Shown here: positions 12,357 through 21,667 of the stretch, piece after piece
Numbering within the stretch: position 1 is the first letter of the stretch
Layout: each line of letters begins with the position of its first letter
Assembly: GCA_964016885.1 (NCBI GenBank)
Contig: CAXHJY010000567.1
Coordinates: forward strand, 19,390-83,389
Reading direction: 5' to 3'
From: Eledone cirrhosa
Lineage: Eukaryota
DNA length: 64,000 bases
Made by a program: the position numbers and the translations under genes
Notes under the pieces: model-generated
Database searches by the model: none
What the model was told of the DNA's origin: nothing
What the model saw: only the letters and a program-made list of their open reading frames with translations

Positions 12357-12656
12357 TTAAAATGCTATAAGAAAATGAAATTATATATATATATATATAT
12401 ATATATTATATTATTATTATTTCGTGTTGACTATATAGATTAGTTTTAAAAGATTTATGACTGTCATTCAAATTGATATAAATCTTACTTTCATTCCATC
12501 TAGATATAGGTGAGAAAGACAGACAGACGCAGAAACAGCTTTTCTTTTATAAGAAAGATTGATGTTTAACATCATCTCCAAATCTGACGGTGTGTTTATG
12601 TACTTTGCATGTGTGATTCTGGTGTTGATTAGTTGAATTATAGATATAATTTCTAA

Positions 12657-13043
12657 TGTGGGTTGGCAGTATCGGTAGAGAGTCGGACACCATGCTTTGG
12701 AGCATAGAGTTACGTCCCTTTATGATCTGAGTTCAAATCCCGCCGAGGTTGACTTTGCCTTTCATCCTTACGGGGTCGATAAAATAAAGTACCAGTAATG
12801 AACTGGGTTATTGCTGGCCTTGTGCCTAAAGTAGAAACAATTATTTCTAATGTGGATTGGCAGTATCGGTAGAGAGTCGGACACCATGCTTTGAAGCATA
12901 GAGTTACGTCTCTTTATGATCTGAGTTCAAATCCCGCCGAGGTTAACTTTGCCCTTCATCCTTACGAGGTCGATAAAATAAAGTACCAGTAATATACTGG
13001 TTAATTGCTGTCATTGTGCCTGAAATAGAAACAATTATTTCTA
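12657..13043 (+). mobile_element. tRNA-derived SINE family 1, two tandem copies
   Basis: A-box TGGCAGTATCGG, B-box GAGTTCAAATCC, conserved body, about 193 bp unit. Confidence 0.9.
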
Positions 13044-13305
13044 ATGTTGGATCGATTCCAGCTGTCTTTACAGGGTGGGGAAAAAGTCAATTATGTCATC
13101 CACAGTATTTAACTGGTACTTACTTTTATATATATTATAAAGAGCTCAGCCGTCGGGGTCCCGACTCATTACAATATAACCATACCGTACTATATCAATT
13201 ATCGAGTATTCTGTTGGGTAATGGTCTAACCAGATTCAGACTGAATCGATCCATGATTTATATATATATATTAGTATATGTTGGTTTGGTTACACCGGAG
13301 TAATG

Positions 13306-14073
13306 TAAAATAATTAATTCAAATATTTAAAATTTAGCTTCGTTTATTAAAGATGTACTGCTATATATATTTCGGTGACAGCCATCATTGGCTGTGACCT
13401 CTTCAGGCAGTCCGAATTGTTGTGGTAGAGACAGGTACACATGTTGTTGAAGTGTTTTACTCCGTCAATACTCCGATATGTCCAGCTCCTGGTTCGGTTG
13501 TTATTTCTCTGAGGAACTGGAATCATATGAATTCGAACAAACAAATTTCGGCGTTGAAAGGACACTCTCTCCTACCATTGGTCAGTTGTGAGAACATTCC
13601 TCAGTCAAAAGTCTATAGAATTTTTTCTGAGGCATGACAATCTGGTGTGGTTGTTTTTGTTAAGTACATCTGACCTCCTCCCTTGTGTTGGTAGTGGTAT
13701 TGGTGTTAAGGGGTCAGCTGGCAGGTCAGCTTTAGCTCGGCTACTGCTATATTCAGAAGAATTTGTGTAGTGGCTTGCCATCTTTCCTGCCACCACTTCA
13801 CGTGGTGGGGCCGCCAAAGAGATAAAGAAATAAGATAAAGTAAAATGAAGAAATAAAAAAATAAGATACAATAAAATGAAGAAATAAAAAAATAAAAGAA
13901 TAAAATAAAATAAAATGCGTTTGTGTTACAACCGATAACAAAGTTTGAAAGATTTGGAAAGTATTGACTGAAGTCGAAAGGCTGTGTCGGAATCGTGTAG
14001 TGCAAAGGATATATATAGCAGTACATCTTTCATAAACGAAGCCAACTTTTAAATATTTGACTTAATTATTTTA
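13306..14073 (-). mobile_element. Non-autonomous Penelope-like element (family A) with about 65 bp inverted ends
   Basis: 13306-13370 is an imperfect inverted copy of 14009-14073; contains a hammerhead; right end abuts (TA)n. Confidence 0.7.
13357..13411 (-). ncRNA. Type-I hammerhead ribozyme, intact core (family A)
   Basis: ACTGC-CTGAAGA-GGTCACAGCCA-ATGA-TGGCTGTCACC-GAAA-TATATA-TA-GCAGT: stem I 5 bp, stem II 10/11 bp, palindromic minimal stem III. Confidence 0.88.
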
Positions 14074-14094
14074 TATATATATATATATATATAT

Positions 14095-14288
14095 AACGAA
14101 GGAAATGTGGTAAGGAACCAGGTGGACCATAACGCACCAAAGTACTCAATACTTGAGGTAGTAGAGTGGGTAATAGGAACCAGTAAGACCCCGACAGCTG
14201 AGCTCAAGCCGTTTCGACGGCTAATTCTGGACAGTCCAGAATTAGCCGTCGAAACGGCTTGAGCTCAGCTGTCGGGGTCTTACTGGTT

Positions 14289-14293
<5 letters not shown>
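14095..14293 (-). mobile_element. TA-flanked fold-back element (family I) with a perfect 60 bp inverted repeat carrying a hammerhead 3' half
   Basis: Arms 14173-14232 and 14234-14293 are exact reverse complements; each contains GAAA-CGGC..GCTG-TC. Confidence 0.8.
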
Positions 14294-15864: not shown

Positions 15865-16770
15865 GTATTGGCAGTCATGTTAGAACGTCGGCGAGAAGGA
15901 ACCGGCCCTGTGCACTCTGAGTTCTAGTCCCATTCGGCCAATTTTGCCTTTGATTATTTCGAGGTTGATTGGCAGAGCGTCAGACACTATGCTTTCCTGC
16001 ATAGTTACGTCCCTTTACGTTCTGAGTTCAAATCCCGCCGAGGTTAACTTTGCCTTTAATCCTTACGGGGTCGATGAAATAAAGTACTAGTCACACACTG
16101 GGGTCGATCTAATCGACTTTCCCCCTCCCTCCATATTACTGGCCTTGTGCCTATATAAGAAACCATTATTTCGAGGTTGGTTGGCAGAGCGTCAGACACT
16201 ATGCTTTCCTGCATAGTTACGTCCCTTTACGTTCTGAGTTCAAATCCCGCCGAGGTTAACTTTGCCTTTAATCCTTACGGGGTCGATAAAATAAAGTACT
16301 AGTCACACACTGGAGTCGATCTAATCGACTTTCCCCCTCCCTCCAAATTACTGGCCTTGTGCCTATATAACAAACCATTATTTCGAGGTTGGTTGGCAGT
16401 ATCGTTGGACACCATTTTGTGCAGCATGGATATACGGCTCTTTGTTCTGCGTTTAAATCCCGCCGAGTTTAGCTTTAACTTTCATCTTCACGGAGTCGAT
16501 AAAATAAAGCACCAGTGATACACTGGCGTCGATTTAATAGACTTTCCCCTCCACTAAAACATGTTGGCCTTGTGCCTCAGACATTATGCTTTCCAGCATA
16601 GTCACAGCTCTCTACGTTCTGAGTTCAAATCCCGCCGTGGTTAGCTTAGACTTTCATCCTTACGGGTGTCGATAGAATAAAGTACCAGTAACACACTAGG
16701 CTCGATTTGAACGACTTTCCCCTCTCACAAAATCGCTAGCCTTGTGCCTAGAGTATAAATCATTATTTCC
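15865..16770 (+). mobile_element. tRNA-derived SINE family 1, head-to-tail array of about 5 copies
   Basis: Repeated GAGTTCAAATCCCGCC...GTCGATAAAATAAAGTAC...GGCCTTGTGCCT units of about 200 bp. Confidence 0.9.
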
Positions 16771-17309: not shown

Positions 17310-17312
<3 letters not shown>

Positions 17313-17581
17313 GAAGTTCTATTTAAATTGTTGGGATACAACAAGCAAATATTTTTATAACTGATATAAAGCACTCAACAAATTATTGGAGTAAAAATAC
17401 GATATATTAACAAATGGAAACGATATTTATGAAAGCATTTTTGTCAATATTTATTTATAAAACTGCTCTATATTATATTTTATCTGATGAAAGCACATCA
17501 TAAGTTAACTTGGTGTCCTTGAAATATGTATAATGAAATAAATATGGTTTTATAAATATAGTTTCCATTTGTTAATATATC

Positions 17582-17582
<1 letters not shown>
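17310..17582 (+). mobile_element. TA-flanked hammerhead element (family B), short copy
   Basis: Same 5' start (GTAGAAGTT..TATTTAA) and 3' tail as 18390-19430; 17400-17440 is an inverted copy of tail 17540-17582. Confidence 0.7.
17476..17540 (+). ncRNA. Type-I hammerhead ribozyme (family B)
   Basis: TATTTTAT-CTGATGA-AAGCACATCA..TGGTGTCCTT-GAAA-TATGTA-TA-ATGAAATA. Confidence 0.8.
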
Positions 17583-17624
<42 letters not shown>

Positions 17625-17694
17625 CATATTTACATGCGTCTGTTTGTGTATGTGTTATTGTATATATATATATATCAGTTCGTAATTTGAAAAG

Positions 17695-17780
17695 ATCCTT
17701 CGGACGAGAGTCCTTCTTTTCTATGGATGTCCGTAAGGACTATCCATTTATTTTTGAGACTTGAAACCGTACAGTAAAGG
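17695..17780 (+). ncRNA. Hammerhead ribozyme, core-mutated copy (family C)
   Basis: CCTT-CGGACGA-GAGTC..GACTT-GAAA-CCGTACAG-TA-AAGG. Confidence 0.65.
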
Positions 17781-18176
17781 TAACTATAGCAGCTACAGTG
17801 AATTTTTTAAAATTTATTTTAAAACATTTTCTTATTTGCTAAACCTTGATTATATATGTTTTTCTCGTTAATTTATTTACATGCCATAGAACCACATTGG
17901 CATATGGTTGGATAATACATGTGTCCCTATATGTATTTTGCATGTAGAGATATATCCTTTATTATTAATCTCCCCTGGCCGAGATAACATTTTGGTCATT
18001 TTGACTGATGCTATTTCTAGTGGCAGTGAATTGACCTTTCCGCCTCTGCCTTCTATCTTTGCACACGGCACTGGACAGAATTGCTTCTATATCATCCGCT
18101 CTCATCTCGGGAACAATTTTGAATAGGGCCAGTTCGTAATTTGAACTCGGGAATTTTATATTATCCGAGTGAAAAG

Positions 18177-18262
18177 ATCCTTCTGACGAGAGTCTTTCTT
18201 TTCTATGGATGTCCGTAAGGACTATCCATTTAATTTTGAGACTTGAAACCGTACGGTAAACG
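18177..18262 (+). ncRNA. Hammerhead ribozyme, intact core (family C)
   Basis: CCTT-CTGACGA-GAGTCT..[ATGGATGTCC-GTAA-GGACTATCCAT]..AGACTT-GAAA-CCGTACGG-TA-AACG; palindromic stem III. Confidence 0.78.
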
Positions 18263-18389
18263 TAACTATTTAAAATTTATTTTAAAACTTTTTCTTATTT
18301 TCTAAACCTTGATTATATATATATATACACATATAGATATTAAAAATATATATATAGAGAGAGAGATATTAATATATATATATATATAT

Positions 18390-19430
18390 GTAGAAGTTGT
18401 ATTTAATTTGTTGGAATTCCGACAAACATAAATGTTTATAACTGATATAGAATACTCAACAGTTTACTGGAGTAAATATTTATTTCCTGAAATTTTTTAA
18501 AGAATCTTTTCCAGAATTTTTTCCAGAACTTTTAATATTTTTATATTTTGTAATATTTTTTAAATATTTTTCATACTTTTGACATTTTTTAATTATTTAA
18601 TATTAGTGTTATGACCAATAACTAATTCTGGCTAAATATATCTTTCAACATTTATATCTTCGTCAAAATGGTCTCATACTAACTAATAAATAAACAAATC
18701 TGTGCTTTTCAATATCTTCCCAATTTAAAACATTGAAGACATATAAATAATCTTATTAACTCAGTTAATTTAATATAAACCAGTATCCCCCATAAGTTAT
18801 TAAAACAATTATCTATAACATGATATACCCATTCATATATCTATTCTTCTATCTATATTTTTGTATCTATTGATTCTCCTACTTTACATCTATTTTCAAT
18901 TTATTTTCCAATACATCTTTATATATATTTATTTTTTCTATATATCTATTTTTTCTATATATTTATAATAGTAAATATTATATTGTATTATATTAGAATT
19001 CTAACAATAATTAGTAAATATACGTAACATTAATATAAACTTCAGACTTATTTACGTTACACGAGTTCATCCTCTGATAAATTTCTTTTTTCTCTCTATC
19101 TATCTCATAACTTTAATTTTTTCTCTTTTCTCTCTCTCTTTCTTTTCTTTCTTCCCTATCTTACAGTGTAATTTAAATAAAAGGTTGTTTTTTCAAATTT
19201 TCATACATTTGTTTGCATATTCACACATAATTTTGAATTACCCCTAATAAGTTTCCAGTATCCAGCGAAATTCCGACCGTTATGGTTGATTCCCATGGGT
19301 ATGTCGTTATTTATAAAACAAATCTTGTATTTTATCTGATGAAAGCGCACCAAGTTTGGGTTGGTCGCCTTTGAAATATATATAATAAAATAAATATGGT
19401 TTTATAGTTTCCATTTATTAATATCTTGGT
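18390..19430 (+). mobile_element. TA-flanked hammerhead element (family B), long copy
   Basis: Shares both ends with 17310-17582; AT-rich non-coding interior. Confidence 0.6.
19328..19392 (+). ncRNA. Type-I hammerhead ribozyme, intact core (family B)
   Basis: TATTTTAT-CTGATGA-AAGCGCACCAA..TTGGTCGCCTTT-GAAA-TATATA-TA-ATAAAATA; perfect 8 bp stem I. Confidence 0.88.
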
Positions 19431-19504
19431 ATATATATATATATATATATATAGATAGATATTAAAAAAAATATATAAATATATATATATATATAGTATG
19501 TATT

Positions 19505-20325: not shown

Positions 20326-20658
20326 TAAACAGACAGATAGTTAGATATATAGATAAGTTTTTTTTCTCATTTCATACATGAAAGCGGATACTTAATCTTA
20401 CATTCTTTAGTTCCTTTAATCTTTTATTCTTCATAGAGAAGAATAGCGTCCAGTGGACTCCACACAACAGTATCAGTGTGAAGCAGGAAATGAATAATAA
20501 TACACCACAGAGTTACAGACATGTCTGTTATAACTCTTCAGGATTCTGAAATTAAAAAAAATAATGCATCTTCATAAACAAAAGCACTTCGCTGAAGTAT
20601 GAATAGAAATTGAAAATATCATATAACTAGTTAATATGTATGTATGTATGTATGATAT

Positions 20659-21389
20659 ACCTATAGAGGTATATCATTGCTTTCTGTCGTAGGGAAAGTT
20701 TTATGTAGGGTGCTTCTGGACCGTGTGCTGACACACATTGAAGATTGTGTTCTTCCTGAAAGTCAATCTGGTTTTCGTGCTGGACGCGGCACTACTGATA
20801 TGATCTTCTCAGCTAGACAGCTCCGGGAGAAGTGCATGGAACAAGGTTTGGATCTGTATCAGGTTTTTGTAGATCTAACAAAAGCTTTCGATACTGTTAA
20901 CAGAAATGCATTATGGAAGGTTCTCCAGAAACTTGGTTGCCCTGATAAGTTCCTTGCTTTAGTTAGGTTTTTCCATGACGACATGAAGGCTTGGGTTAAT
21001 GTCGGATGTAACAAGTCGGAGCCTATCTCAGTAAAAATTGGCGTGAAACAGGGGGATATTCCAGCACCGACCCTGTTTGCCATATACTTTGCAACGGTTT
21101 TCTTTATTGCATTCAGGAATTGCGAGCCTGGTGTTTACATCCGATATCGAATCTCAGGCAGCATATTTAACATCAGGCGCTTTGCTGCAAAGACAGAAGT
21201 ATTTACATCAATCATAAAGACCTCTTTTATGCAGATGATTGCGATCTTGTAGCGCACACAGAGAGTGATATGCAGCACATTTTGAATGCATTTTCTGACG
21301 CTTGCAGTGCCCTAGGATTGACTGTCAGTCTCAAGAAAACCGTCCTCATGTACCAACCTGCCCCTGGTAAGCAGTACAGTGAACCAAAT
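20659..21389 (+). mobile_element. RTE-clade (BovB-like) LINE reverse transcriptase fragment, frameshifted near 21225
   Basis: YRGISLLSVVGKV..LPESQSGFRAGRGTTDMIF..FVDLTKAFDTV..GVKQG..APTLF, then LFYADDCDL in another frame; flanked by (TATG)n on both sides. Confidence 0.93.
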
Positions 21390-21667
21390 GCATGTATGTA
21401 TGTATGCATGTATGAACGTGGTTGGTTGGTTGGGTGGGTGTGTGGGTGTGTCTGTGTGTGAGTGTGTGTGTATGAATGCAAGTACGTGTGTGTGTATGTA
21501 CGTATGTATGTATGTATGTGTGGGCTAATAGAATTTAATGGTGTCGTAGAGGTGGTGTCATGATATACGGCGTCACTTGTCCTCTTTAAACAAAGCGGAA
21601 GCCACCCCTCTTAAATTTAAACAGTCAACTTCTTCCAGTAATTTTAGAAATAGAGAGAAAGAGAGTG

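Follow-up and report, generated by a model that had tools for sequence, protein, structure and literature searches.

The double-hammerhead element at 17676-18316 of the window, by which we mean the whole 64,000-nt stretch of Eledone cirrhosa DNA analyzed here, most likely comprises about 1.4 turns of a single unit of ~480 nt ending in (TA)n, an arrangement best taken as a partial tandem of the kind formed by Penelope-like elements (PLEs). The unit belongs to a real, high-copy family with a shared non-coding body and an intact majority hammerhead, and is best read as a retrozyme-type, PLE-dependent, non-autonomous element; animal retrozymes as a kind are already known. A preliminary description, made from the window sequence, had seen the locus as two repeats around a spacer. 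Both the repeats and the spacer are real, but a PLE-type partial tandem is the better reading of how they are arranged.

As shown in Table 1, each of the two direct repeats carries a hammerhead, as had been described; both are of type I, with cut sites after 17776 and 18258 and thus 482 nt apart. Among the 163 letters that align between the repeats, 7 are mismatched, and each copy has a gap, with 28 nt missing in copy 1 and 19 nt missing in copy 2; with both gaps restored, the insertion would measure about 688 nt, or 1.4 turns. The spacer, said to be non-coding and about 270 bp long, was borne out as well: it measures 272 nt, has stops in or near all six frames, and the three longest frames overlapping it gave no Pfam match. 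A tRNA-derived head was looked for in the unit, which has a GC content of 0.36, and none was found. The TA flanks also hold, and as both are TA runs, a target-site duplication of more than 4 bp may be hidden in them. The surroundings of the element in the 64-kb window are AT-rich and laden with microsatellites.

Table 1. Features of the double-hammerhead element, in positions of the window
Feature	Position	Strand	Basis or remark
(TA)n run, left, putative target	17663-17675	.	sequence
Repeat copy 1, 5'-truncated extra part-turn, lacks the 28-nt hairpin after 17687	17676-17857	+	repeat alignment
Hammerhead 1, type I, with defects at 17702, 17713 and 17773 and the cut after 17776	17697-17780	+	motif, majority letters
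Long hairpin just past the cut, predicted to capture the AAGG strand of helix I	17777-17847	+	predicted circular fold
Short internal TA run, 3' end of unit, putative priming point	17851-17857	+	sequence, contig ends
Non-coding, hairpin-rich body (spacer), common to other copies	17858-18129	+	contig and read coverage
Repeat copy 2, 3' part of a full turn, keeps the 28-nt hairpin (18142-18169)	18130-18316	+	lacks 19 nt after the cut
Hammerhead 2, type I, core and helices II and III intact, helix I broken at 18261	18179-18262	+	cut after 18258
Predicted 482-nt cut-to-cut monomer	17777-18258	+	cut-site positions, fold
Decayed (TA)n run, right	18310-18389	.	sequence

The cores of the two hammerheads read CGGACGA at 17701 (copy 1) and CTGACGA at 18183 (copy 2). 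In copy 2, helix II has 7 bp, is closed by a G.U pair and is extended by a second hairpin to 55 nt in all, helix III consists of 3 bp with a palindromic 4-nt loop, and helix I, of 4 bp, contains the break at 18261. In copy 1, helix I is intact, and the defects lie in the core (17702), helix II (17713) and helix III (17773). The preliminary description had given each copy a single defect, which is correct for the helix I break of copy 2, but not for copy 1, which has three. A strict type I descriptor matched nowhere in the linear window and once in the monomer read as a circle, and when helix I was relaxed to 2 bp, copy 2 was the only match. Neither search gave a match in 200 shuffled windows, indicating that the double hammerhead is not a product of chance. 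Rfam returned no match at gathering level across the 64 kb, and none of the 12 chance-level matches in 17600-18400 was a hammerhead, probably because helix II is as long as 55 nt.

Helix I has just 4 bp, helix II is long and closes with a G.U pair, and helix III is short and palindromic, features by which the ribozyme is of the PLE type. In the available parts of PMC4209133, PLE hammerheads are given a long helix II, a helix I of 4-5 bp and a palindromic helix III, and canonical hammerheads a 6-bp helix I and a 4-bp helix II. The claim that the consensus of the two copies is fully canonical therefore stands only in part: the majority letters do repair all four defects, but G.U replaces G-C at the base of helix II and helix I has only 4 bp even after repair, so the wording was overstated for a hammerhead with PLE traits. 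A U before GAAA and a 4-bp helix I are found in many rows of the Hydra-clade hammerheads in the accessible part of PMC8557442, and 235 Rfam hammerhead loci are listed for the giant squid in that of PMC6962438.

To describe the family, public records were aligned at 80% likeness. These came from four of seven DNA runs and from two organisms, with RAD runs X6 and X7 and contig run X3 left out, and comprised 2410 and 2641 contigs from organism A, 26 contigs from organism B and 5332 raw reads. The counts include matches to the TA flank, and among the raw reads such matches predominate. If X1 is from the same species as the window or is its source, as may be the case, it is not independent evidence. 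A spacer not shared among copies had been set beforehand as the refuting result, and this did not occur: the spacer was covered in every bin in X1, X2 and X5, and the X1 bins from 17872 to 18111 had depths of 1,422-58,308, with raw reads in all bins. Majority letters mend the core, helix II and helix III of copy 1 in 54 of 57 (17702), 60 of 61 (17713) and 431 of 438 (17773) raw reads, and a majority G at 18261 mends helix I of copy 2 in 32 of 35. It is this repair of four defects, together with the very high depth of the whole unit in two organisms, that makes the family real and high-copy, and the multi-copy, retrozyme-like family proposed earlier is thereby supported. Summed contig depth is not a copy number, and we infer copies in the order of thousands.

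Most aligned records were less than 95% alike to the window copy, which is thus old or of a minor subfamily. The 28-nt gap of copy 1 is private to the locus, since X1 depth was 22.9 at 17680-17703 and 83,209 at the matching 18136-18159 of copy 2; summed contig depth across the gap was 13.5-23. In other subfamilies present in the loose-end consensus, the outer helix II differs in sequence and, judged by eye, still pairs. Read-end pile-ups at 17804, 17811, 17870, 18082 and 18152 were considered as RNA ends, but coincide with AATT sites and were taken as library cuts, and 'go-back' joints of about 480, considered as circles or arrays, were not counted as they are expected from the direct repeat alone. 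Pattern scans of metagenome, viral, prokaryote and phage collections gave no match. No description of the family was found in the openly accessible literature on octopus or cephalopod hammerheads, retrozymes and Penelope, which does not establish its absence from print.

The ends of the unit could also be followed in the contigs. In 18 X1 contigs, the unit gives way to a TA run at 17857, which places its 3' end in (TA)n, 81 nt past the hammerhead cut. Other contigs, in X1 and X2, cross the end-to-start junction at 17862 and have 51-57 letters left before they end, and in X4 a single contig covers 17832-17928, with 26 letters on the repeat side and thus below the 31-letter rule used. The junction is therefore not private to the locus, at which the head-to-tail arrangement amounts to 1.4 turns. 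The same layout would arise if an autonomous PLE whose 3' UTR is long and structured had inserted two of its 5'-truncated ends in tandem, without any independent mini-element or circle. We regard this as unlikely, yet as an explanation to be taken seriously, for its architecture and target are those of PLEs in the available parts of PMC8557442, the hammerhead is PLE-type, the neighboring families B and C resemble truncated PLE ends, one of them with an inverted end copy, and contig depth dips at the 17858 junction (4,659 at 17862, far below 38,328 at 17878). However, depth is already high where the body begins (about 55,000 at 17872-17919) with no fall toward the 5' end, the share of contigs running on into unlike sequence is 0 in X1 and X2 (0.05 in X4), the junction is crossed in three contig sets, and the body contains no coding remnant. 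A long parent element, if rare, can escape notice in Logan contigs, as these are interrupted at branch points.

A single unit-length insertion that was later part-duplicated at the DNA level, by slippage or unequal exchange between TA runs, would mean that the two hammerheads never came from one RNA. The TA runs that flank all parts are unstable, and both repeats share non-majority letters (e.g., 18194, 18196 and 18204), but such letters are equally expected from one RNA template; moreover, copy 1 starts (17676) at a point internal to the unit, whose counterpart in copy 2 (18130) has no TA run, and the end-to-start junction is shared with other copies and with the second organism, so that we consider this duplication very improbable. 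Hardly credible is the joining, by template jump or circle recombination, of a fresh cut-to-cut monomer to a solo repeat of its subfamily that was older and had decayed, with the hammerhead cut site as the point of fusion. In its favor, the damaged state lies outside the monomer in 7 of 9 repeat differences, the interval in which the state changes (17773 to 17779) includes the cut site, and reading the monomer as a circle yields an intact hammerhead. Against it, the other two differences (17826 and 18233) are damaged inside the monomer, at least 7 of 9 is expected by chance in ~9% of cases (one-sided binomial), three of the seven were polarized by depth and not by the variants listed, and the monomer itself differs from the majority at a minimum of 27 positions. 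A seeming rule that all defects lie outside the monomer (7 of 7) fell to 7 of 9 once reads polarized two more.

The copy in the window is old and damaged, and shows no sign of a host function. By established hammerhead rules, it can probably not release the 482-nt monomer, since helix I of site 2 is broken and so is the core of its dimer partner. The intact core of copy 2 is predicted to be able to pair with site 1 in a dimer, with a helix III duplex of -10.5 kcal/mol, where perfect pairing would give -16.4. A preprint calls an element 'active' if two successive units each have a complete hammerhead; this copy does not, as no strict match lies in the linear window. In the available part of 10.64898/2026.07.22.740005, cleavage was seen in only one of nine predicted dimers tested. 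Neither the GUA-AAGG junction, which is present in the DNA of every intact copy, nor divergent RT-PCR, which also amplifies linear tandem transcripts, is diagnostic of a circle.

Compared to shuffled sequences, the monomer folds with a z-score of -3.82 (minus strand, -2.83), a value to be read against control windows, 7 of 34 of which fold as extremely, four of these in one satellite. For the effect of the majority letters, 27 positions inside the monomer were used among the 40 variants listed (170 further ones exist), with 5 outside the monomer and 8 minor or split ones set aside and indels ignored. The 27 letters lowered the folding energy by 17.7 kcal/mol, versus a change of +7.2 +/- 6.0 for matched random changes, and none of 300 such random sets came as low. 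At the level of pairs, 5 letters keep a pair, 5 close a mismatch, 6 break a pair and 11 are unpaired. Taken as predictions, the folding data show that this copy has decayed from an ancestor with more pairing; they do not in themselves show an RNA function. When the copy is folded as a circle, the post-cut hairpin captures the AAGG strand of helix I with a pair probability of 0.73-0.98, and the active ribozyme fold costs 6.7-8.2 kcal/mol; the hairpin is thus a predicted off-switch of the ribozyme. With the majority letters, the capture probability is 0.19-0.24, and a rival partner at 18056-18059 takes 0.38.

The element would work like a non-LTR retrozyme, and the family has the DNA-level features of animal retrozymes: a type I hammerhead, a non-coding, multi-copy whole unit, and a self-paired monomer, the last with the control windows just mentioned as a limit. 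Like the animal non-LTR retrozymes in the accessible parts of PMC7229834 (Cervera & de la Pena 2020) and 10.64898/2026.07.22.740005 (Li, Clavereau & Pollet 2026, the preprint cited above), it is low in GC, has no LTR, carries one type I hammerhead per turn and is linked to PLEs. Its 482 nt exceed the ~170-400 nt of invertebrate retrozymes and fall inside the 51-972 of 10.64898/2026.07.22.740005. Unlike animal retrozymes, it has a PLE-type hammerhead without evident loop 1-loop 2 contact, is seen as 1.4 turns and is known here from DNA. A ribozyme sequestered in the circle, as predicted here, is reported in the available text of PMC7229834 for plants and some mussel circles, not for most animals. 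Plant LTR retrozymes likewise have two repeats with one ribozyme each, a non-coding middle and a ribozyme blocked in the circle, but their hammerhead is type III, and here no 4-bp duplication is visible, the element ends in (TA)n and the repeats are a partial tandem, not LTRs.

On the side of the PLEs, the accessible parts of PMC8557442 describe Hydra-clade and TA-targeting elements that share the (TA)n target, the partial tandems (pseudo-LTRs), a sense-strand hammerhead separated from the 3' end by a few dozen nt, a short helix I and, in many, the U before GAAA. Unlike the Hydra-clade PLEs given there, the element has no open reading frame with RT and GIY-YIG, as an autonomous PLE would have, its helix II is much longer, and no match to the published consensus sequences was found by exact motif search. 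With the PLE pLTR hammerheads in the available parts of PMC4209133, it shares a helix II of at least 7 bp, a 4-bp helix I, a palindromic helix III and loop, and the dimer type, and it differs from them by G.U in place of the conserved G-C at 10.1-11.1 and by the second hairpin that extends helix II.

Taken together, it is probable that the family is a non-autonomous hammerhead retroelement of ~480 nt that uses the RT and endonuclease of a TA-targeting PLE of the Hydra, Neptune or Naiad type. According to the available text of PMC8557442, Hydra and Naiad target (TA)n and include some families from Octopus, Hydra has a 3' hammerhead, often with U before GAAA, and partial tandems and non-autonomous PLE derivatives occur; that of 10.64898/2026.07.22.740005 derives animal retrozymes from PLE ends. 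Read-through Pol II transcripts would carry the unit, Pol III being disfavored by 11 runs of four or more U, and the hammerheads would cut these transcripts, probably as dimers via the palindromic helix III. The helper would nick the (TA)n target, and the nicked TA would prime on the short internal UA run, after which copying would proceed upstream past the two cut sites in turn, and stop after ~1.4 turns. Since the genomic unit ends at the TA run and not at the cut site, it is a permuted form of the cut-to-cut monomer, and this fits target-primed copying from the internal UA run through both cut sites. As copying would pass both, the template must be unbroken there, and a ligated circle and an uncut multimer are about equally probable; more-than-unit copying from circles has been proposed earlier (PMC4209133 and PMC7229834, parts available). 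In a circle, the hairpin past the cut would hold the ribozyme off. The locus copy would since have decayed, and most likely yields no monomer.

As to the helper, no PLE frame was found among the 140 frames of the window. Five exact motifs did not match the published Naiad, Chlamys and Hydra consensus files, in an exact search in which line breaks can hide matches, and the 3' end of Hydra-1_Obim, compared by eye, is unlike the unit. A more far-reaching version, which we consider improbable, is that of a living circular-RNA parasite without a parent of its own sequence, present in thousands of copies, UA-primed by a TA-targeting PLE (possibly a hammerhead-less Naiad) and equipped with a built-in ribozyme lock, the insertion recording RNA or cDNA joining exactly at the cut site. 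If true, this would provide a countable genomic test of circle-templated PLE retrotransposition. The tie between retrozymes and PLEs has so far been argued mainly in vertebrates, and the element represents a high-copy invertebrate family. Its PLE-type ribozyme, fixed and putatively TA-primed 3' end and more-than-unit insertions make it a convenient case for distinguishing circle from uncut-multimer copying by PLE machinery.

The double-hammerhead element is less singular than it may appear, since it sits in a nest of TA-targeting, hammerhead-bearing insertions: the window contains four more hammerheads from two other TA-flanked families (0 in 200 shuffles), two of which flank the element. The second family (+ strand) comprises 17310-17584, 18390-19428 and 54469-54572, with cores at 17484, 19336 and 54473, a helix I of up to 8 bp, a palindromic helix III and the hammerhead ~45-55 nt before a TA run. 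The first 90 nt are common to both copies that flank the element, and the copy at 17310-17584 contains an inverted copy of its own 3' end at 17392-17442. Similar interrupted TA motifs at 18333-18357 and 19449-19495 surround the 1-kb neighbor, and are possibly a target duplication. The third family, at 13303-14076 (- strand), has an intact type I hammerhead (core 13406, cut 13362), no Pfam match, and a 68-nt inverted copy of its 3' end at the other end (92.6%), a PLE hallmark.

Several other repeats were observed in the window. An almost perfect palindrome of 121 nt (99%) lies beside a TA run at 14173-14293, with a relative at 60226-60414, and strong self-pairing at 43429-43910 (z -14.8), 47271-47752 (z -5.7) and 56641-57122 (z -10.1) probably reflects palindromic elements. 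A SINE-like unit of 141-212 bp, presumably octopus-type by its look, forms tandem arrays at 12649-13052, 15953-16549, 40661-40933 and 55581-56024. A broken reverse transcriptase in two frames at 20656-21458 (+ strand; Pfam RVT_1, E 2.6e-20 and 8.3e-7) is by its look, we assume, an RTE-type LINE and not a PLE. The 164-aa frame at 41840-42331 (- strand), without Pfam match and 44-89% alike to uncharacterized animal proteins, is one we take to be probably a DNA transposase fragment. Similar frames at 48125-48295 and 48774-48944 (+ strand) have one C2H2 zinc finger each, below the Pfam cut-off, and 49830-50012 (- strand) gave a weak match to a hAT dimerization domain (E 0.006).
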